29,605 nucleotides of DNA from a virus (taxonomy: Duplodnaviria > Heunggongvirae > Uroviricota > Caudoviricetes), in the IMG/VR virus record IMGVR_UViG_2547132415_000023; one strand, written 5' to 3'. Position 1 is the first letter of the stretch. Every line of letters begins with the position of its first letter. A program made the position numbers and the translations under genes. Positions 1 to 23,108 of this stretch are shown here, piece by piece. The notes beneath the pieces were generated by a model. The model saw only the letters and a program-made list of their open reading frames with translations, was not told where the DNA came from and did no database searches.

Positions 1-17
1 AACACCAGCAAACAGAT

Positions 18-45
18 AAAAAAGGGCCAGCCAATTGGCCAGCCC
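18..45 (-). terminator. Rho-independent terminator candidate downstream of int (minus-strand transcript)
   Basis: On the minus strand 45..24 folds as a 9-bp GC-rich stem (two G.U wobbles) with an AAUU loop, followed by a U6 run (23..18). It lies 3' of the integrase gene on that strand. Confidence 0.55.
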
Positions 46-171
46 TTCTTAACAGGATGTCGCTTAAGCGAAATCTTAGTTAAGACGCTCCTATTTACAC
101 CCCGCAACAAACAAACGCTTACCATATAAAACAATTAGTTAAAGTAATTTTTAATGCAATGAATTGCAGTG

Positions 172-1221
172 TTATGCAACCTCTGCCGCCATATTGTCGC
201 CAACATACAGCGATAACGGATTAAGGGTTACAGCTTGTTCAAGGTGGTCAGGAGCAAAGTGTGCATACTTCATTGTTTCTCGAATATTGGCATGCCCGAG
301 AATTTTCTGCAGTACCAGTATATTCCCGCCGTTCATCATAAAATGCGCACCAAAAGTATGACGCAAAACGTGCGTCTTCTGCCCTTCCGTCAATTCAATA
401 TTCGTTAGTTTGAGCATCTTCTTAAACTCCTGATAGCAGGGTTTAAACATTCTGCCTTGACGTACGGACAACTCGTCGTACAGCCATTTAGGAATAGGAA
501 CTGTGCGATTCTTCTTACCTTTGGTTTTGGTGAACGTCAGTTTATATGGAGAAAGTTGAGGGCGGGTCAATCTCTCCGCTTCCCCCCATCGAGCGCCGGT
601 TGCAAGGCACACCTTAACAATCATGGTGAGGTCTTCTTTGCCGTATTGCTCACAGGCTCGAAACAGCTCCGGGAGCTGAGACAAAGTTAGCCAGGACATT
701 TCTTTCTCAGCCTCTTTGAATACTCGGATCCCATCAAGTGGATTGGGTAGGCTCCACTCCCCTAACCGGCGGAGCTCATTAAACACTGCTTCTAGGTATT
801 GTTGTTCGCGATTGACGGTTATAGGTTTGGCGATCCATTTCGAGGGGTCTTTATGATAACCGTTGTCTATTTCACCACGTAATCGACGGTCACGATAATG
901 AGCCCAGTCTTTCGCGGTAAGGCGAGATGCAATCGGGTCACCAAGCCCATTACATACGATTTGAAGCTTTGCTAACCTCGACTTACTGGCGACTAACGCT
1001 TGACCGTGCAAATTGTGCCAAAGCTGAATAATCTCGCTTAAGCGTCGGCGGTCTTCTTTCTTGCCAAGCCACGGCTTATCTTCACTCTCGCTTTTGGTAA
1101 ATGCTTCGAATGCCTCGGCCTCACCTTTGGTATTGAATTGCCGACGTATACGCCGCCCTTCTCGACCATTTGGATAGAGCTCGCATAACCATTTGCCATT
1201 TTTTTGCTTACTTACAGTCAT
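172..1221 (-). CDS. int: P2/186-type tyrosine integrase
   Basis: 349 aa ORF. N-terminus MTVSKQKNGKWLCELYPNGREGRRIRRQF and C-terminal HVLRHTF..GGNILVLQKILGH..MKYAH motifs (R..HxxR..Y catalytic region) are typical of P2/186 integrases. Terminal position next to the repressor gene fits. Confidence 0.92.
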   Translation of the reverse strand: MTVSKQKNGKWLCELYPNGREGRRIRRQFNTKGEAEAFEAFTKSESEDKPWLGKKEDRRRLSEIIQLWHNLHGQALVASKSRLAKLQIVCNGLGDPIASRLTAKDWAHYRDRRLRGEIDNGYHKDPSKWIAKPITVNREQQYLEAVFNELRRLGEWSLPNPLDGIRVFKEAEKEMSWLTLSQLPELFRACEQYGKEDLTMIVKVCLATGARWGEAERLTRPQLSPYKLTFTKTKGKKNRTVPIPKWLYDELSVRQGRMFKPCYQEFKKMLKLTNIELTEGQKTHVLRHTFGAHFMMNGGNILVLQKILGHANIRETMKYAHFAPDHLEQAVTLNPLSLYVGDNMAAEVA

Positions 1222-1243
1222 AATGTCACCGAGGCAACTCTAA

Positions 1244-1582
1244 TTATTCGCAAAGTGCTGTTGCGGCATCCATTACAGGATCCAAAGGAATTTTTACACC
1301 TGCATACTCTGGACTGTCTTTCCAAACAGCATCAATATTGCTCCCCTCAAGCTTTCCAGACTTTACTCCATCAATAGCAAAACCATTTAATGGGTATCGG
1401 TCATCAGTTGCTTTGTCGTATACAAAGGCATACTTACCGTTAACGCAAGACACCGTAGCTTTTTCAAAAGTTAACGGCCAATCCTCACCAAACTTAGCGC
1501 CATCTAAATCCTGTGTTTTTTCAGCGGCTAAGGAGCCAAAAGAAAAGGTAAGAAGCATAGCTAAAAAGAGTTTACGTTTCAT
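1244..1582 (-). CDS. Small secreted protein (cleavable signal peptide), cargo gene between cI and int; possibly YebY/DUF2511-like
   Basis: Likely true start at MKRKLFLAMLLTFSFGSLAAE (ATG at 1580-1582) with RBS AAGGGA upstream; the longer ORF to 1654 would overlap cI. N-terminus is basic then hydrophobic with an A-x-A-like cleavage site; two Cys in the mature part. It starts 9 nt after the cI stop on the same strand. Confidence 0.6.
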   Translation of the reverse strand: MKRKLFLAMLLTFSFGSLAAEKTQDLDGAKFGEDWPLTFEKATVSCVNGKYAFVYDKATDDRYPLNGFAIDGVKSGKLEGSNIDAVWKDSPEYAGVKIPLDPVMDAATALCE

Positions 1583-1590
1583 AATTTCCC

Positions 1591-2451
1591 TTATACGTGT
1601 TTTTCCAATGTGAAAACTACAACCCCGGCAGGCGTAATGTCGGTAATGTTGCATTCAAACTCAGCAGACTTATTTGACAACCTGACTTTTCCACCAGGTA
1701 AACGAATTACATCAAAAACATCAAGAGCGCCGTCGATATCAATTAACCAGCGACCATTACTTATATTCGAAGCAGAACAGTCGACAAGCCAAGAGGCAGC
1801 TACACCGTCAACAAAAATCAATTCCCCTGAGTTAGAAGGAATCATTGAGGGGTCAGGATGCCACGTTCCTGCATCCTTAAGCTCACCAGATTCAAGACGA
1901 GATTTTTTAATAGAAAAACCAGATGTGACATCTTCCCTGTTAGCTCGCATTTGCCCCTTGCCTGTTGCTAACCATTCCAGTGACGTATCGGTATCAAGAG
2001 CGCATGTAACAACAACATCACCAGGGAAAAAATCTCGCCTTACCCATGTGCTAATTGTGCCAGAGGAAATGCCGAGCAAATCACCGAGCTCCTTTTGCAT
2101 GGTAAAGCCATACGCATCAAGAATCCTACGCAAAACGGTTTTACCACCATTCGTCATAATCTCGTCATAAAGCTCTTTGCCTTTTAACTTGCAACTGGCT
2201 CGCTCGTGATTTGCATTTGCAAGCTCTCCATTTACAAGCCAATTGATATCAGCTCCCGTGTCAAGACAACACCTAACTATGACATTGCCAGGTATTGCAT
2301 CACGCTGAACCCAGCCGCTAACGCTGTGTTTAGCGATACCTAGCAGGTCAGCCAAATCCTTTTGCATCTTGACCCCATAGGCTGACATTAAGCGTTCCAA
2401 TACGCCGTTCGTTGCACTAACACGCCACTGAACATCAAGCTCAGAACTCAT
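1591..2451 (-). CDS. cI: 186-type CI immunity repressor with tandemly duplicated N-terminal HTH domain
   Basis: 286 aa. Residues ~14-75 (VLERLMSAYGVKMQKDLADLLGIAKHSVSGWVQRDAIPGNVIVRCCLDTGADINWLVNGE) and ~102-163 (VLRRILDAYGFTMQKELGDLLGISSGTISTWVRRDFFPGDVVVTCALDTDTSLEWLATGK) are clear internal repeats of a phage CI-type HTH domain. Divergent from the apl/cII operon and upstream of int, as in 186. Confidence 0.85.
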   Translation of the reverse strand: MSSELDVQWRVSATNGVLERLMSAYGVKMQKDLADLLGIAKHSVSGWVQRDAIPGNVIVRCCLDTGADINWLVNGELANANHERASCKLKGKELYDEIMTNGGKTVLRRILDAYGFTMQKELGDLLGISSGTISTWVRRDFFPGDVVVTCALDTDTSLEWLATGKGQMRANREDVTSGFSIKKSRLESGELKDAGTWHPDPSMIPSNSGELIFVDGVAASWLVDCSASNISNGRWLIDIDGALDVFDVIRLPGGKVRLSNKSAEFECNITDITPAGVVVFTLEKHV

Positions 2452-2460
2452 AAAAACCCC

Positions 2461-2497
2461 TACAGATAATTTTATGGGTGTTTACAGAAAACTTTTT
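2461..2497. promoter_or_regulatory. Direct repeats in the cI-apl divergent promoter region (candidate Apl/CI operator sites at pR/pL)
   Basis: TACAGATAATTTT (2461-2473) and TACAGAAAACTTTT (2483-2496) are spaced about two helical turns apart in the 121-bp gap between divergent cI and apl. Confidence 0.3.
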
Positions 2498-2572
2498 ACG
2501 ATCTATAGTGGCATTCATCGACCAAGATGCACACCACTGCACTACATTTCAAACAACAGGAGATAATGCGAT

Positions 2573-2944
2573 ATGTCAGATGCAAAATCAATCTCGACGC
2601 ACGACTCGCAAAACTCACAAAATCAAACTGTGCTGCTAGATCCAACACAGTTTGATGCCATCGTTACCGCCATGCTGCCAGCTCTACAGACAATGATTCG
2701 CTCCGCTATGTCAGACACGATGACTGTGAAAGACTTCGCCGCTACTCGCGGTGTTAGCGAGCGTCTGGTCTGGCAATGGCTCGATGAGGGAGTCCTTCTC
2801 AAAGCTCCGACCAAAGACTTTTCCAACAAAGAGGAAGCTGCTAAACGAAGCCGAACCCTCGTAAACGTAAAAGCATGGCGCGATAAGCTGACTCAACAAG
2901 CGATTGATTGTCGCTACATCGACCAGCGCACCGCTCTTAACTGA
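2573..2944 (+). CDS. apl: Apl/Cox-like excisionase and transcriptional regulator
   Basis: 123 aa, first gene of the rightward early operon, RBS CAGGAG 8 nt upstream. Internal HTH-like segment MTVKDFAATRGVSERLVWQWLDEG. Longer than classical Apl/Cox (~90 aa), so the N-terminal 30-odd residues may be an extension or the true start may be internal. Confidence 0.6.
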   Translation: MSDAKSISTHDSQNSQNQTVLLDPTQFDAIVTAMLPALQTMIRSAMSDTMTVKDFAATRGVSERLVWQWLDEGVLLKAPTKDFSNKEEAAKRSRTLVNVKAWRDKLTQQAIDCRYIDQRTALN

Positions 2945-2976
2945 ATTTGATTATGCAAGTTAGAGGGAATTTAACC

Positions 2977-3486
2977 ATGTTTGATTTTCAGGTTTCCAAA
3001 CATCCCCACTATGACGAAGCATGCCGCATTTTCGCACAGCGTCACAACATGGCGAAGCTGGCCGAGCGTGCAGGTATGAACGTTCAAACGTTACGTAACA
3101 AGCTCAACCCGGAACAGCCTCACCAGTTCACGCCGTCTGAATTGTGGCTGCTGACTGACCTGACCGAAGACTCAACCCTCATTGATGGTTTTTTAGCGCA
3201 GATTCACTGCCTACCATGCGTGCCGGTTAATGAGTTGGCTAAAGACAAATTGCAGTCTTATGTCATGCGCGCAATGCGTGAACTCGGCGAACTGGCGAGC
3301 GGCGCGGTATCTGATGAACGTCTGACCATTGCCCGTAAGCACAACATGATTGAAAGCGTTAACTCCGGCATTCGCATGTTGTCATTGTCGGCTCTGGCGC
3401 TGCATGCACGTCTGCAGACTAATCCAGCTATGTCGAGCGTGGTCGATACCATGAGCGGTATTGGCGCATCGTTTGGTCTGATTTGA
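2977..3486 (+). CDS. cII: 186-type CII lysogeny-establishment activator
   Basis: Sequence from MFDFQVSKHPHYDEACRIFAQRHNMAKLAERAGMNVQTLRNKLNPEQPHQF is CII-like with an HTH. I chose the ATG at 2977; the track ORF starts at 2947 in the same frame. Confidence 0.8.
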   Translation: MFDFQVSKHPHYDEACRIFAQRHNMAKLAERAGMNVQTLRNKLNPEQPHQFTPSELWLLTDLTEDSTLIDGFLAQIHCLPCVPVNELAKDKLQSYVMRAMRELGELASGAVSDERLTIARKHNMIESVNSGIRMLSLSALALHARLQTNPAMSSVVDTMSGIGASFGLI

Positions 3487-3493
3487 GGTGCGT

Positions 3494-3694
3494 ATGCTGA
3501 AAAGTGAACCGTCATTCGCATCTCTGCTCGTTAAGCAAAGCCCCGGCATGCACTACGGCCACGGCTGGATCGCAGGTAAGGACGGCAAGCGCTGGCACCC
3601 GAGCCACTCGCAGGCTGATTTACTGGCTGGCCTCTCTACTCAAAAGCGGGGGGGATCATGGCTATCGAAGCTGTTTCCGCGACTGTTCCGCTAA
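3494..3694 (+). CDS. Hypothetical small early protein (fil-position ORF)
   Basis: ATG at 3494 preceded by GAGGTG RBS; 66 aa; in the early operon after cII. No recognisable motif. Confidence 0.4.
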   Translation: MLKSEPSFASLLVKQSPGMHYGHGWIAGKDGKRWHPSHSQADLLAGLSTQKRGGSWLSKLFPRLFR

Positions 3695-3996
3695 AAGCGG
3701 GTGAACGTCTGGCCGGTCTCAATCATGTTGCCGAATTGCGCGCGAGATATTGGGGCGATAGCTGGAAAGAGGTTGAACGTTTTGTCGATGATATGCGCGA
3801 TAAACGTGACCCACAATTTGAAGAAAATAATCGGGCGCTGGCCGCTATTTTCTTTCTGGCAAAAATACCGGCGGCTCGTCATGAACTCGAATTAAGTGAG
3901 CTGACTACTGACGAGAAAAAGGCGCTTATTACAGCGATGAATCATTTTCGTGCAGTAGTGAGCTTATTTCCCAAACGGCTAACCATGCCGAATTAA
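3658..3996 (+). CDS. Hypothetical early protein
   Basis: 112 aa ORF in the rightward early operon, overlapping the previous ORF by ~37 nt. Not recognised. Confidence 0.45.
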   Translation: MAIEAVSATVPLKAGERLAGLNHVAELRARYWGDSWKEVERFVDDMRDKRDPQFEENNRALAAIFFLAKIPAARHELELSELTTDEKKALITAMNHFRAVVSLFPKRLTMPN

Positions 3997-7035: not shown

Positions 7036-7266
7036 ATGAGAATCAATATCACGTTGGATAAAGAGCAAAAATTAGGGCAACAGATCATTGATGCTTTTCA
7101 GAATGAAATAACACATCGAGTACAATGCGTTTTTCCTGCAACAAAAGTTAACGTTAAGAAAGGGTCAATGACTAGTGTAGAGGCTATCGGATTCGATAAA
7201 GAGACGGACAGAGAAACATTAGGCAGCATATTACAAGAGATTTGGGAAGACGATAGCTGGCGTTAA
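7036..7266 (+). CDS. DinI-family protein
   Basis: 76 aa: MRINITLDK...IIDAF..EITHRVQCVFP...ILQEIWEDDSW matches the DinI pattern (MRIEVTI...RRIQYAFP...ILQETWE..DDW). Same frame as the preceding ORF. Confidence 0.75.
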   Translation: MRINITLDKEQKLGQQIIDAFQNEITHRVQCVFPATKVNVKKGSMTSVEAIGFDKETDRETLGSILQEIWEDDSWR

Positions 7267-8239: not shown

Positions 8240-9568
8240 ATGAATTGTAATGAACTTTTTTATTCCGCTGACAACCATGCATTAACGTTGCATGAAAGAA
8301 CAAAGTTATCTACGGTTGTTTTAGATAAAGGCATTACAAAAAAGAATGAATTAATAGAGTTTTTGAGAGAGGAATTAAAAGGGTCATTTGGTTGCGACGT
8401 TAAGTTTTGGTTGCAAGGATCATACAAAAGTCACACTCTCATTAAGCCTGTTGATAAGTTTTCTTCATATGATATTGATGTGGGCATTTATTTGTTCTTT
8501 GATGCAGAGGCTGAAGAGATTAATTCAAAGGATGTAAAGGATACGTTGAAAGATGCTTTACTATCTTACTGCGAAATAAATAACGAGGCGAAGATTCAGG
8601 AGTCAAAGAATGCGTGTGAGGGATTAATATTCTCCTCCTTTCTTACAATCGACACCCCTATCTATTATAAAACAACGACAAAAGTAAAACTTGCAACAGA
8701 TAAAGGTTGGAGTGATAGCGATCCAAAAGCTATACAAGACTGGTTAACAAATTCACATGCTACAAAACCAGCTAGAGCATTAATGAAACGGCTCGTCCGT
8801 TACTTTAAAGCATGGGTTAATGTACAGTGGCACGGTACTTCATTTAAAAAAATACCTTCGTTAGCGATAAATGTCCTAGTTGCTAATAACTTAAGTATCC
8901 ATGATAGAGAGGACGATTGTTTTATATATACAGTGTTAGCTATTTGTGAGCAATTAGAGCGCTCAATGGAAGTAGAGAATCCTCTTAATGGCACCAATTT
9001 GCTTGCGATGCCTGATGATGCTTTAACTTTCGCGCATCAAAAGCTTCAACAATTGAAGAAAGTTTGTATAGATTGTATAGATGCCAACGAAAATGAAAGG
9101 AATATAAATTTTTCTAATTTATTCCAACATTATTTCCCTCAGGTAACGATCGTATCAAACGGAGGGGGAACTGGTCTGCCAGCGATTACTACAACCCCAG
9201 AAATATCTGTCTGTCGTTATGATAAACATGGTTCCCACATTGAAACTGTCTTAACGGATCAGTTAACGGTTGATAAAGGTGACTCATTAACATTCACCAT
9301 TTGTAATCCTGGGGCTTTTAGCCCTTATGCTCAGACGAAATGGACGGTTAGAAATGTTGGTAGCCAAGCTAATGATGCCAATGATATAGGGCACATTGAA
9401 TATGGAAAACCCAACGAAAGTCATAAACGGGGAACGTCTTATACTGGCTCGCATACGATGGAATGTATGGTTACTTACAATGGCGCTGTTTTAGGTTTAA
9501 AAGTTATTCAAGTTATAGTACGGCCTGCAATTTCTGTTAAAAGACCTATTAGAAAGTTTTGGAGATGA
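8240..9568 (+). CDS. cGAS/DncV-like (SMODS-type) nucleotidyltransferase with C-terminal extension; candidate signal synthase of a defence module
   Basis: 442 aa, strong RBS AGGAGG at 8231-8236. Pol-beta NTase signature G60-S61 ... D78-I-D80 (QGSYKSHTLIKPVDKFSSYDIDVGIYLF), with further acidic residues downstream. About 140 C-terminal residues are Gly/Thr/Ser-rich and beta-like with no recognised match. Low-GC gene. Confidence 0.7.
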   Translation: MNCNELFYSADNHALTLHERTKLSTVVLDKGITKKNELIEFLREELKGSFGCDVKFWLQGSYKSHTLIKPVDKFSSYDIDVGIYLFFDAEAEEINSKDVKDTLKDALLSYCEINNEAKIQESKNACEGLIFSSFLTIDTPIYYKTTTKVKLATDKGWSDSDPKAIQDWLTNSHATKPARALMKRLVRYFKAWVNVQWHGTSFKKIPSLAINVLVANNLSIHDREDDCFIYTVLAICEQLERSMEVENPLNGTNLLAMPDDALTFAHQKLQQLKKVCIDCIDANENERNINFSNLFQHYFPQVTIVSNGGGTGLPAITTTPEISVCRYDKHGSHIETVLTDQLTVDKGDSLTFTICNPGAFSPYAQTKWTVRNVGSQANDANDIGHIEYGKPNESHKRGTSYTGSHTMECMVTYNGAVLGLKVIQVIVRPAISVKRPIRKFWR

Positions 9569-9572
9569 TAGT

Positions 9573-10151
9573 ATGTGGGAACTAATGCCACCAAAAGCTA
9601 AATACGGCTTATCAATTGGAATTTCTATTCTTATCTTCCTTATGTATAAGGAATGTTTTAAGTTTCCTTTTGCTAGATCTATCTCCTTTACGATCAGTAC
9701 CATTACCATCCTTGCTTGGTTATTTGGAAAGTATTTATGGAAATATATTTATTTTGGTATCTTTAAACGGAATTTTTGCCCAGATTTTAATGGCACGTGG
9801 ACGGCTACGATAAAATCAAATTTTAGCCCGAATACTCAGGTTGAATTTCCATTAAAGATAGAGGCTAATTTCTTCTCTGTTAAGATGACAGGCAATACCA
9901 CTATCGGAAGAACCTACACAAATCTATGTAAAATTGTTCGTGCAGAAGATGATAGTTTCGAGTTGGTATATATGTTTAGAGTTATGAATGACTCTCCATC
10001 TGATTCTGATGCTGTTTTCTATGAAGGGGCGGCGAGGTTACGTGTAGTTGACATTGACTCTATGCAAATGATAGGGGTCTTTTGGACAAATCGATGTTGG
10101 CAAAATAATTTAAACACTGCTGGTTCTATAACTTTAACGAAACAGAGTTAG
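9573..10151 (+). CDS. Small membrane effector candidate: two N-terminal TM helices plus beta-rich C-terminal domain (Cap15-like)
   Basis: 192 aa, starts 4 nt after the NTase stop with its own GGAG RBS. Hydrophobic segments LSIGISILIFLMY (~13-25) and ISFTISTITILAWLF (~37-51); the C-terminal ~130 aa shows alternating hydrophobic patterns suggesting beta strands. Confidence 0.65.
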   Translation: MWELMPPKAKYGLSIGISILIFLMYKECFKFPFARSISFTISTITILAWLFGKYLWKYIYFGIFKRNFCPDFNGTWTATIKSNFSPNTQVEFPLKIEANFFSVKMTGNTTIGRTYTNLCKIVRAEDDSFELVYMFRVMNDSPSDSDAVFYEGAARLRVVDIDSMQMIGVFWTNRCWQNNLNTAGSITLTKQS

Positions 10152-21532: not shown

Positions 21533-22512
21533 CCGCAAAATATTTTGCCATTCTGACCAATCAGGGCGCGGCGCGGCTGGCGAACGCGGCGGCACTCGGT
21601 ACCAAACTCAACCTGACGCAGATGGCCGTCGGTGATGCGAATGGTACGTTGCCGACCCCTGACCCGGCGCAGACGAAGCTCATTAACCAGAAACGCATCG
21701 CGCCGCTGAACCTGCTGACCGTTGACCCGGCCAATACCAGTCAGATTATCGCGGAACAGATTATTCCCGAGAATGAAGGTGGTTTCTGGATCCGCGAGAT
21801 TGGTCTCTATGACGATGATGGTATTCTGATTGCCGTGGCGAACTGTCCGGAGACCTACAAGCCACAACTGCAGGAGGGAAGCGGTCGCACGCAGACCATT
21901 CGCATGATTCTGATTGTGTCGAGCACATCGGCAATTACCCTGAAAATCGACCCGGCAGTCGTGCTGGCAACGCGCCAGTATGTCGACGATAAGGTTATCG
22001 AGGTGAAAGCCTATGCTGATAGTCTGCTGGCCGCGCACCTCGCCGCTGCTGACCCGCATTCGCAGTACCTCAAAACGGCGGATATTGATAAATATATTCC
22101 GGTCGGCTTTCCGCTGCCGTGGCCGCAGGCAACTCCGCCGAGTGGCTGGCTGAAATGCAACGGTGCGGCTTTTGACAAGGCGAAATATCCAAAGCTGGCC
22201 GTCGCTTATCCATCAGGTAATCTGCCTGATTTGCGTGCTGAATTTATCCGTGGGTGGGACGATGGTCGAGGGGTCGATGCGGGCCGAATTTTGCTAAGTC
22301 AGCAAGGAGCCACAGCATTTACTGAATATCATGGGGACGGAGCAACAGGGCAACCACCTCGAAATTATTACACCAATCAGGACTTTGTCAGCTATGCCGG
22401 TACTGGGTTTACTGCTTTTGGTGGAACTGATGTTCGAAAAGACGGAATCACCAATTATATTGGTGTTCGCCCGCGCAACATTGCATTTAACTACATCGTG
22501 AGGGCGGCATAA
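21529..22512 (+). CDS. H: Tail fibre protein gpH (short form)
   Basis: 327 aa with the conserved tail-fibre N-terminus MTAKYFAILTNQGAARLANA. Much shorter than P2 H (~670 aa); the last ~80 codons have lower GC. Confidence 0.8.
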   Translation: MTAKYFAILTNQGAARLANAAALGTKLNLTQMAVGDANGTLPTPDPAQTKLINQKRIAPLNLLTVDPANTSQIIAEQIIPENEGGFWIREIGLYDDDGILIAVANCPETYKPQLQEGSGRTQTIRMILIVSSTSAITLKIDPAVVLATRQYVDDKVIEVKAYADSLLAAHLAAADPHSQYLKTADIDKYIPVGFPLPWPQATPPSGWLKCNGAAFDKAKYPKLAVAYPSGNLPDLRAEFIRGWDDGRGVDAGRILLSQQGATAFTEYHGDGATGQPPRNYYTNQDFVSYAGTGFTAFGGTDVRKDGITNYIGVRPRNIAFNYIVRAA

Positions 22513-23108
22513 TGGCAAAAGCGACACTAAACAAAAACGGCATTGCCACAAAAGCTGGTGATATGACCGTCTATAACTTTGATGGCGAGACGCGCGAATA
22601 TTTATCGGCATCCGTGGAGTTTCTCGCCGTCGGCGTAGGTATTCCTGCCAACTCCTGCACCGATGCTCCCGTCGACGCGAAAGATGGTTTTGCTGTGTGC
22701 CGCGCGACCAGTCTTGATGGGTGGGAATATGTTATCGACCATCGGGGCGAGACCGTGTATGACACTGAATCCGGCCAACCTGTCGAGATAAACGGGCTCG
22801 GTGATTACCCTGATAATATGACCACCATCAAACCGCTGACGACTTATGACCGCTGGAACGGTAGCGAATGGGTTACGGATGCGGATGCACAAAAAGGCGG
22901 TCAGGTTGCGGCAGCGCAACAGAAAAAAGCCTCGCTACTGGCCGAAGCGCAAAGCACCATTAGCCTGTGGCAGACCGAGCTGCAACTCGGCATCATCAGC
23001 GACGATGACAAGGCCAACCTGATTGCATGGATGAAATACATTCAGGCGCTGAACGCGGTCGACACATCAACAGCACCGGATATCGAGTGGCCGGTAAAAC
23101 CGGAATAA
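22512..23108 (+). CDS. G: Tail fibre assembly chaperone gpG
   Basis: 198 aa, starts at the TAATG overlap with H; lower-GC 5' part and a conserved-looking C-terminus. Confidence 0.8.
   Translation: MAKATLNKNGIATKAGDMTVYNFDGETREYLSASVEFLAVGVGIPANSCTDAPVDAKDGFAVCRATSLDGWEYVIDHRGETVYDTESGQPVEINGLGDYPDNMTTIKPLTTYDRWNGSEWVTDADAQKGGQVAAAQQKKASLLAEAQSTISLWQTELQLGIISDDDKANLIAWMKYIQALNAVDTSTAPDIEWPVKPE

Follow-up and report, generated by a model that had tools for sequence, protein, structure and literature searches.

In phage 186 the repressor gene cI and the integrase gene int abut, and in P2 the 115 nucleotides (nt) between C and int hold no annotated gene. The window studied here, a stretch of viral DNA of 29,605 nt (IMG/VR record IMGVR_UViG_2547132415_000023), is a PSP3-like Eganvirus prophage located directly downstream of yfiB in Escherichia coli, and it carries at this place a gene for a 112-residue protein of the DUF2511/YebY family. 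A sequence-only reading of the window had singled out the gene by contrast with P2 and 186; since 186 has no gap and that of P2 no annotated gene, the contrast is correct. We report that PSP3-type modules have a swappable cargo slot between cI and int, in which the DUF2511 gene is one of several cargos, and we consider what an exported protein made in lysogens might do.

Cargo at such a position in the lysogeny module is already known from phage K139 and from temperate phages of Gram-positive bacteria. K139, a P2-related phage of Vibrio cholerae (Peduoviridae), likewise has glo in its leftward lysogenic operon between cI and int; its record gives the order cI, orf2 (a BRCT protein), glo, int, and annotates the glo product as 'periplasmic protein; involved in phage exclusion'. 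Like the phage DUF2511 protein, Glo is small (137 residues) and has an N-terminal signal peptide, and it has been described as a soluble periplasmic exclusion protein (PMC3952083); for its properties we rely on the GenBank record of K139 and on secondary citations. In K139-like P2-related phages of the Vibrionaceae, a defence hotspot lies between cI and int (Rousset 2022, PMC9122126), and in a 2026 survey in Nucleic Acids Research 8% of P2 defence systems were located in the interval from integrase to primase (PMC13586616). A text search of these two papers found mention of neither DUF2511 nor the PSP3-type slot. Ltp of Streptococcus thermophilus phage TP-J34 and related proteins are encoded by lysogeny-module genes expressed from the prophage, and the exported products act at the membrane's outer face, where they block the injection of DNA (PMC3952083). 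They differ from the protein described here in being lipid- or membrane-anchored, unrelated in sequence, and encoded by siphoviruses of Gram-positive hosts.

Functional data on the family itself come from YebY and MlbQ. E. coli YebY (b1839, PDB 7n0j), a protein of 113 residues against 112 in the phage, is encoded by the third gene of the yobA-yebZ-yebY (AZY) copper-uptake operon; it is periplasmic and binds copper weakly (PMC8689200; PMC11923076). Its two cysteines form a disulfide needed for expression, which the loss of either one abolished, and the protein has been purified from the periplasm (PMC8689200). MlbQ (PDB 2mvo, 6qfp), involved in self-resistance to NAI-107 in Microbispora, is extracytoplasmic and has a disulfide in the same place (PMC8689200). 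The same paper, published in 2021, already noted yebY homologues lying between a recombinase and a CI repressor gene (PMC8689200).

A YebY-family gene between cI and int

The three genes and the presumed ribosome-binding site are arranged as follows:

1591..2451, minus strand: cI repressor gene of the 186 type, 286 residues, first gene of the lysogenic operon
1587..1592, minus strand: Shine-Dalgarno-like AAGGGA read from the sequence, overlapping the cI stop codon and 4 nt before the ATG
1244..1582, minus strand: DUF2511/YebY-family coding sequence of 112 residues, from open reading frame and sequence, stop codon (1246..1244) included
172..1221, minus strand: tyrosine integrase gene, 349 residues (Pfam Int_N and Phage_integrase; phrog_1), last gene of the operon

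The coordinates first proposed for the small gene hold, and its strand, which had been left unstated, is minus. The mechanical open reading frame is longer (1244..1654, minus strand, 136 residues), its first 24 codons overlapping the end of cI out of frame. The 112-residue protein starts at the ATG at 1582..1580, and the same methionine is the start in 43 of 43 distinct homologues; its N-terminus reads MKRKLFLAMLLTFSFGSLAAEK. The spacer from the cI stop codon (TAA, 1593..1591) is 8 nt, so that the ATG begins at the ninth nucleotide, just as had been described, along with a ribosome-binding site of its own (AAGGGA, 1592..1587). The int ATG, at 1221, lies 22 nt beyond the stop codon of the DUF2511 gene.

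A loose resemblance to YebY/DUF2511 had been suggested, and profile searches bear it out. The protein scores 63.7 bits (cutoff 21) with Pfam PF10709 (DUF2511, now named YebY), residues 29-111 falling on positions 5-87 of the 87-position profile, and a precomputed PF10709 match is present on all close homologues. It also matches phrog_2950 over its full length (1.8e-52), a family that E. coli YebY matches too (1e-29), and in a search against solved structures the sole sequence match was YebY (7n0j, E 3.7e-7). Six residues are invariant in a 17-sequence family alignment (G32, W35, C46, Y63, A69 and C111), and three of them, W35, C46 and C111, correspond to Trp37, Cys48 and Cys113 of YebY; this alignment points to a Cys46-Cys111 disulfide in the phage protein equivalent to Cys48-Cys113. 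An AlphaFold model of moderate quality (predicted local distance difference test score, pLDDT, 69.6), calculated from a shallow alignment of 16 sequences, has the four-stranded antiparallel sheet packed with helices that characterizes the YebY/MlbQ fold. The identity of the gene and its assignment to the family can be regarded as practically certain.

The gene itself is ordinary in form and had already been annotated, which the sequence-only reading missed, as it did the published cI/recombinase context. It corresponds to orf28 (gp28) of PSP3, which is 97% identical and whose record notes similarity to an E. coli protein; in the Midge record the label is 'putative periplasmic protein', and in RefSeq it is 'DUF2511 domain-containing protein' for SEN1, SW9, SI22 and E. 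coli genomes. The DUF2511 prophage gene is not new as an object, and the present one is a new member of a described family. New are the cI-int gap as a cargo slot, a separate cI-linked clade, and purifying selection together with allele swapping. A 'DUF2511 domain-containing protein' listed in a proteomics paper could be assigned to neither the prophage gene nor yebY.

Kinship with YebY suggests one possible function, lysogenic conversion by way of host copper, which is the chief competitor of the explanation favoured below. The phage protein would act as YebY does on the YebZ (CopD)/YobA (CopC) importer and, as a constitutive prophage product outside host control, would alter cytoplasmic copper and then MarR-dependent antibiotic tolerance or NDH-2 activity. 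The PF10709 family, the fold, the tryptophan, the disulfide positions and the signal-peptide plan are all as in YebY. Moreover, YebY co-expressed with YebZ lowers copper accumulation, the AZY operon is needed for mar activation, and the hosts E. coli, Salmonella, Klebsiella and Enterobacter are among the taxa with AZY-type operons (PMC11923076). However, identity to YebY is only about 31%, the mature phage protein lacks a metal site rich in His, Met or Cys, and homologues of YebY are found in many settings that have no link to copper (PMC8689200). Whereas YebY of the AZY type adjoins copD (yebZ) and lies two genes from copC (yobA), the neighbours of the phage gene are cI and int, and copC and copD were not found nearby. 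We consider a role in copper handling unlikely. A more specific version, in which a YebY mimic made with the repressor escapes copper/FnrS control, resets copper entry through YebZ and shifts MarR-dependent multidrug tolerance, seems distinctly so.

Signal peptide and predicted export

The protein divides into two parts:

1526..1582, minus strand: signal peptide, residues 1-19 (MKRKLFLAMLLTFSFGSLA), rule-based, with predicted cleavage at SLA/AEK
1247..1525, minus strand: predicted mature periplasmic domain, residues 20-112, with Trp35, Cys46 (1447..1445) and Cys111 (1252..1250)

A typical Sec signal peptide, and with it export to the periplasm, had been proposed. The signal peptide passes a check by the classical rules, which we applied to 43 alleles and to YebY, and is in keeping with homology to a periplasmic protein. 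In the phage leader, the n-region MKRK (+3) is followed by 16 uncharged residues that form a hydrophobic stretch; positions -3 and -1 are occupied by small residues, and there is no lipobox. Nearly all of the 43 alleles follow the same scheme, with an n-region of +1 to +3, 14-17 uncharged, mostly hydrophobic residues (mean Kyte-Doolittle value about 2) and small -3/-1 residues ahead of AEK. An N-terminal hydrophobic leader is present in all 43 and a rule-based cleavage site in 41; in the distant alleles of loci L078 and L080 the hydrophobic run is shorter and the rules give no cleavage site, and in the L036 allele the run is broken by a proline. The rule check found a lipobox in none of the 43. 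E. coli YebY, which is experimentally periplasmic, has the same signal-peptide plan, with an ALA/AP site at the aligned position. Since the crystallised YebY chain starts at A21, which aligns with phage Ala20, cleavage is placed after Ala19.

Probable expression of the lysogenic operon

The sites that bear on transcription are these:

2563..2591, minus strand: candidate pL-type promoter, TTGATT-17 nt-CATTAT, from our own scan (8/12 matches), facing cI
2573..2944, plus strand: PSP3-type Cox/Apl analogue, 123 residues (phrog_3554, 3.1e-75)
2947..3486, plus strand: CII (Pfam/PHROG annotation)
19..50, minus strand: strong hairpin followed by a T-run, from a terminator scan, downstream of int in host DNA just after yfiB (E66 context)

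The proposal that the protein is made in the lysogen is plausible: the gaps are 8 and 22 nt and no promoter or terminator was found between cI and int, which is consistent with co-transcription with cI. A consensus promoter scan of the minus strand from cI through int found no promoter-like site. The terminator-like sites on the same strand and interval are two weak ones, inside int at 346..376; the hairpin at 19..50, which is bidirectional, is the only strong one on the minus strand after cI. By analogy with 186, lysogens would transcribe the gene together with cI from pL, the maintenance promoter, and at establishment a CII-dependent promoter would serve both. The candidate pL sits at the start of the cox/apl-like gene, in the geometry of the annotated pL of 186. 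We regard it as probable that the DUF2511 gene specifies a lysogen-expressed periplasmic accessory protein.

The regulatory proteins of this region have some features of their own. CI, annotated as such in the PSP3 and Midge records, has two Phage_CI_repr helix-turn-helix (HTH) domains (PF07022, two stretches, 176 bits) and the CI C-terminal domain (PF16452, 74 bits). It is 286 residues long against 192 in 186 (cI at 22433..23011 of the 186 record), the tandem HTH pair preceding the C-terminal domain, and this long double-HTH form is common to all 80 related loci described below; in a 2011 paper, PsP3 CI was characterized only by a 'longer C-terminal domain'. The PSP3-type protein in the Cox/Apl position was called a singleton without detectable domains in a paper of 2011. 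In the window, the protein encoded there (2573..2944) gives a weak match to Cox-like excisionases (8.3e-5).

The cI-int gap as a cargo slot

We compared 80 IMG/VR loci encoding a PSP3-type CI (54-100% identical). Two of them end right after cI, which leaves 78 that are informative about the interval between cI and int:

59 of 78 loci: DUF2511 gene, in 5 also with a bacterial PH (bPH)+SHOCT protein and in 1 also with a second signal-peptide protein
10 of 78 loci: membrane protein of 187-201 residues with a WYL domain
4 of 78 loci: signal-peptide protein of 130-137 residues, phrog_3807
1 of 78 loci (L083): BRCT protein and unknown protein
4 of 78 loci: empty, with a spacer of 30-80 nt

The loci are not independent samples, so that these counts describe the variety of the slot and not frequencies. 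The sequence-only reading had made its proposal depend on the gene not being a conserved core component of the lysogeny module. Indeed, it is absent from 186 and from 19 of the 78 PSP3-type modules, and cleanly missing from 4 of those 19, in whose spacers no remnants of a DUF2511 gene were found. In PSP3-type modules, the interval between cI and int is a slot for swappable cargo, not a core position. The GC content at third codon positions (GC3) of the DUF2511 gene is 31%, whereas the window as a whole has about 50%; the value is near that of the window's other cargo, a cyclic oligonucleotide-based antiphage signalling system (CBASS; 31-34%).

In L070, L078 and L080, which do not have int next to it, the DUF2511 gene is still kept beside cI. 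The order in L080 is cI, DUF2511, an FRG protein (PADLOC candidate PDC-S15, 7.8e-55) and a GmrSD_N protein. Two loci with unusual cargo are located as follows:

L080, 4829..7130, plus strand: FRG and GmrSD_N genes
L083, 4875..6199, plus strand: BRCT slot protein, likened to orf2 of Vibrio phage K139

BRCT proteins thus stand both beside glo in K139 and in the PSP3-type slot. The defence hotspots of P2-like phages likewise hold variable cargo between conserved phage genes, and the window itself has CBASS in the gpA-gpQ hotspot; unlike those hotspots, the slot described here has as its dominant cargo one small periplasmic protein without a known defence domain. The alternative slot cargos resemble defence genes and not metal genes, which is a further point against a role in copper handling.

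The other cargo proteins deserve a brief description. The phrog_3807 protein, which has no Pfam match, was found in L004 (2647..3051, minus strand), L032, L052, L053 and L058, and together with DUF2511 in L041; in E. coli genome E21 it replaces DUF2511. The WYL protein (L045-L050, L069, L081, L082, L084 and L089) has N-terminal membrane helices and a C-terminal WYL domain, and matches phrog_6785 and, weakly, PADLOC WYL models. In six loci a 166-170-residue bacterial PH+SHOCT protein follows DUF2511 to form a two-gene cargo (L070 and L085-L088; in L079 it follows a DUF2511 fragment).

Distribution and evolution

Among 50,697 phage records, seven PSP3-like phages carry the gene and are the only ones to do so. 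A tBLASTn search of the same records with E. coli YebY and an actinobacterial-type member returned the same seven only; at tBLASTn sensitivity there is no support for the view that other isolated phages, actinophages for example, commonly carry DUF2511. Scans of viral contigs with single distant members gave nothing new, and a scan of genome contigs with an alignment of the phage clade gave 2 loci only, its search patterns being narrow and insufficient for a species-wide census. Of 5,426 complete E. coli genomes, 68 have the module. In Salmonella the commonest allele, P0011, is indexed in 1,924 blocks of the assembly collection, and in 6 of 6 places examined it lies between a double-HTH cI and int, beside yfiB. 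In a library of 1.84 billion representatives a single cluster exceeds 50% identity to the protein and the next stands at 37%, which indicates a tight, distinct subfamily.

A neighbour-joining tree (84 mature-domain columns, 98 taxa, 100 bootstraps) recovered the core cI-linked clade as monophyletic in 95 of 100 bootstraps; support falls to 27 of 100 when the three most distant cI-linked alleles (32-37% identity) are added. A recent capture of enterobacterial yebY, hinted at by a first neighbour-joining tree, was dropped when the sister grouping appeared in 0 of 100 bootstraps; we therefore make no claim on the donor. That the cI-linked proteins form a clade of their own, united with the YebY group in none of the bootstraps, also counts against a YebY-like action on copper.

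The ratio of nonsynonymous to synonymous substitution rates (dN/dS), calculated by the Nei-Gojobori method over 50 related loci, is 0.13-0.17 for the DUF2511 gene (about 0.16, mature part 0.16); cI has 0.12 and int 0.03. Purifying selection acts on the DUF2511 gene, which nevertheless evolves as fast as the repressor. Its leader has a dN/dS of 0.49 against 0.16 for the mature part, with hydrophobicity kept, as is usual for signal peptides. Alleles are also swapped between modules: an allele of 48% identity is found in modules whose cI and int are 87% and 95% identical to those of the window (L024, L025). The reading frame is intact in 57 loci. In 40 of the 43 alleles the two family cysteines are the only ones; among the others, Cys111 is missing from one (C111W) and an additional cysteine is present in one.

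The C111W allele (TGC to TGG in codon 111) was found in strain S3 and in two IMG/VR contigs; loci with this allele are L090 (1231..1569, minus strand), L012 and L013. It is fixed in a widespread lineage of E. coli prophages that is about 92% identical to the present module, and the exact 70-nt 3' end of the allele occurs in 19 complete E. coli genomes, which means that in a successful prophage lineage the protein is dispensable or the change tolerated. Given that cysteine loss abolishes expression of YebY, this lineage may carry a crippled allele, and it argues against an indispensable role. It offers a natural control.

These observations bear on the possibility that the gene has no function of its own, being either a host gene once captured and now hitch-hiking as a remnant, or a DNA spacer that tunes int expression after cI. 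It is certainly dispensable, as the 4 modules with an empty slot and the 15 with other cargo attest, and the presence of the C111W allele in E. coli genomes would fit as well. Against this stand the dN/dS of the mature part, which is near that of cI, the conservation of exactly two cysteines in nearly all alleles and of the leader in every one (with a cleavage site in 41), the intact frames, and the retention of the gene beside cI where int is not adjacent. A gene without function is very improbable.

A possible role at the lysogen envelope

The explanation that we favour is that the accessory gene, part of an operon of the form cI-gene-int, encodes a small soluble periplasmic protein with the YebY/DUF2511 fold. 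After Sec export and cleavage behind Ala19, the protein would be oxidized in the periplasm to form the Cys46-Cys111 disulfide. There it would bind something that enters this compartment and so protect the lysogen at its envelope. The likeliest target would be a component of the DNA-delivery machinery of a superinfecting phage, which would make the protein a superinfection-exclusion factor. MlbQ, with its proposed sequestering of an incoming ligand, could serve as a model for this mode of action. Exclusion of, or protective binding against, a superinfecting phage is a possible function, to which we would give somewhat less than an even chance; the sequence-only reading had named superinfection exclusion and lysogenic conversion as candidate roles. 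Exclusion is suggested by the comparison with Glo and by the defence-like genes among the neighbours of the slot. The explanation as a whole, an exported and lysogen-expressed accessory protein with a protective or exclusion role, is put forward tentatively, as something close to an even chance.

The incoming ligand might also come from a competitor and not from a phage. The protein would then be an orphan immunity protein that binds a bacteriocin, a lantibiotic-like peptide or a secreted effector in the periplasm, in the manner of MlbQ, which has been proposed to confer self-resistance by direct binding of NAI-107 (PMC8689200). The diversity and swapping of alleles seen among the modules would fit an arms race. 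A small, periplasmic, disulfide-stabilised format is typical of immunity proteins. However, MlbQ is a lipoprotein with a long unstructured linker, whereas the phage protein has no lipobox and its mature part starts directly at the folded domain. Likewise, the gene for MlbQ, an actinobacterial protein, belongs to a lantibiotic cluster that also has ABC-transporter genes, whereas no toxin or ABC-transporter gene is linked to the phage gene in the window or in related loci, and no cognate toxin is known. Lantibiotics normally do not reach the periplasm of enteric bacteria. An immunity function of this kind appears improbable.

Several points weigh against our preferred explanation of superinfection exclusion by a periplasmic protein made in lysogens. 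An exclusion phenotype has been reported for Glo, whereas for the phage DUF2511 protein the likeness lies in gene position and predicted compartment; BLASTP gave no alignment between the two at E <= 100, so that the analogy is one of position and compartment only. No defence family of PADLOC-DB 2.0 was matched by the protein at E <= 0.01. Functional data on family members point elsewhere, to copper import for YebY and to lantibiotic immunity for MlbQ. We found no paper that assigns a function to a phage DUF2511 protein, and no functional test. Expression in the lysogen is deduced from gene layout, the match of the candidate pL promoter is weak and the structural model only moderate. The success of the C111W lineage belongs here as well.

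Other features of the window

The window is 86% identical in DNA to Salmonella phage PSP3. Positions 100..2560 are 100% identical to E. coli strain E66, and positions 1..3600 are 99.8% identical to phage vB_EcoM-613R3. It starts in host DNA right after the yfiB stop codon and ends exactly at the stop codon of the tail gene D (29605); the ogr gene and the right attachment site of the prophage consequently lie outside it.

The CBASS-type island is a two-gene insertion at 8240..10151 (plus strand), in the classical P2 hotspot between the replication gene A and the portal gene Q. Its first gene encodes a 442-residue CD-NTase (PADLOC cyclase, 1.3e-159; Pfam DncV-like NTase and AGS_C) and its second a 192-residue 2TM/Cap15-like effector (PADLOC, 1e-29); the GC content of the island is 35-37% against 52% for the phage. 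Among the early genes are those for a DUF5347 protein (3658..3996, plus strand, 106 bits) and a DinI-like protein (7036..7266, plus strand, 64 bits).

Implications

The phage branch of DUF2511/YebY is widespread, on the counts given above for E. coli genomes and for the Salmonella allele, though no function has been reported for it. That the gene is accessory, exported and expressed in lysogens is well supported; that it acts in exclusion is a hypothesis with good precedent. If an exclusion or immunity function were true, a new fold would join the short list of soluble periplasmic exclusion proteins, and there would be a hint that YebY and MlbQ share a ligand-sequestering mode. Should the protein act on copper instead, a common prophage would be changing metal handling and antibiotic tolerance in about 1% of E. 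coli and in many Salmonella strains. What stands more firmly is that PSP3-type modules have, between cI and int, a cargo slot that is probably expressed in lysogens; this extends the K139-type hotspot to enterobacterial Eganvirus phages and supplies several candidate cargo proteins.

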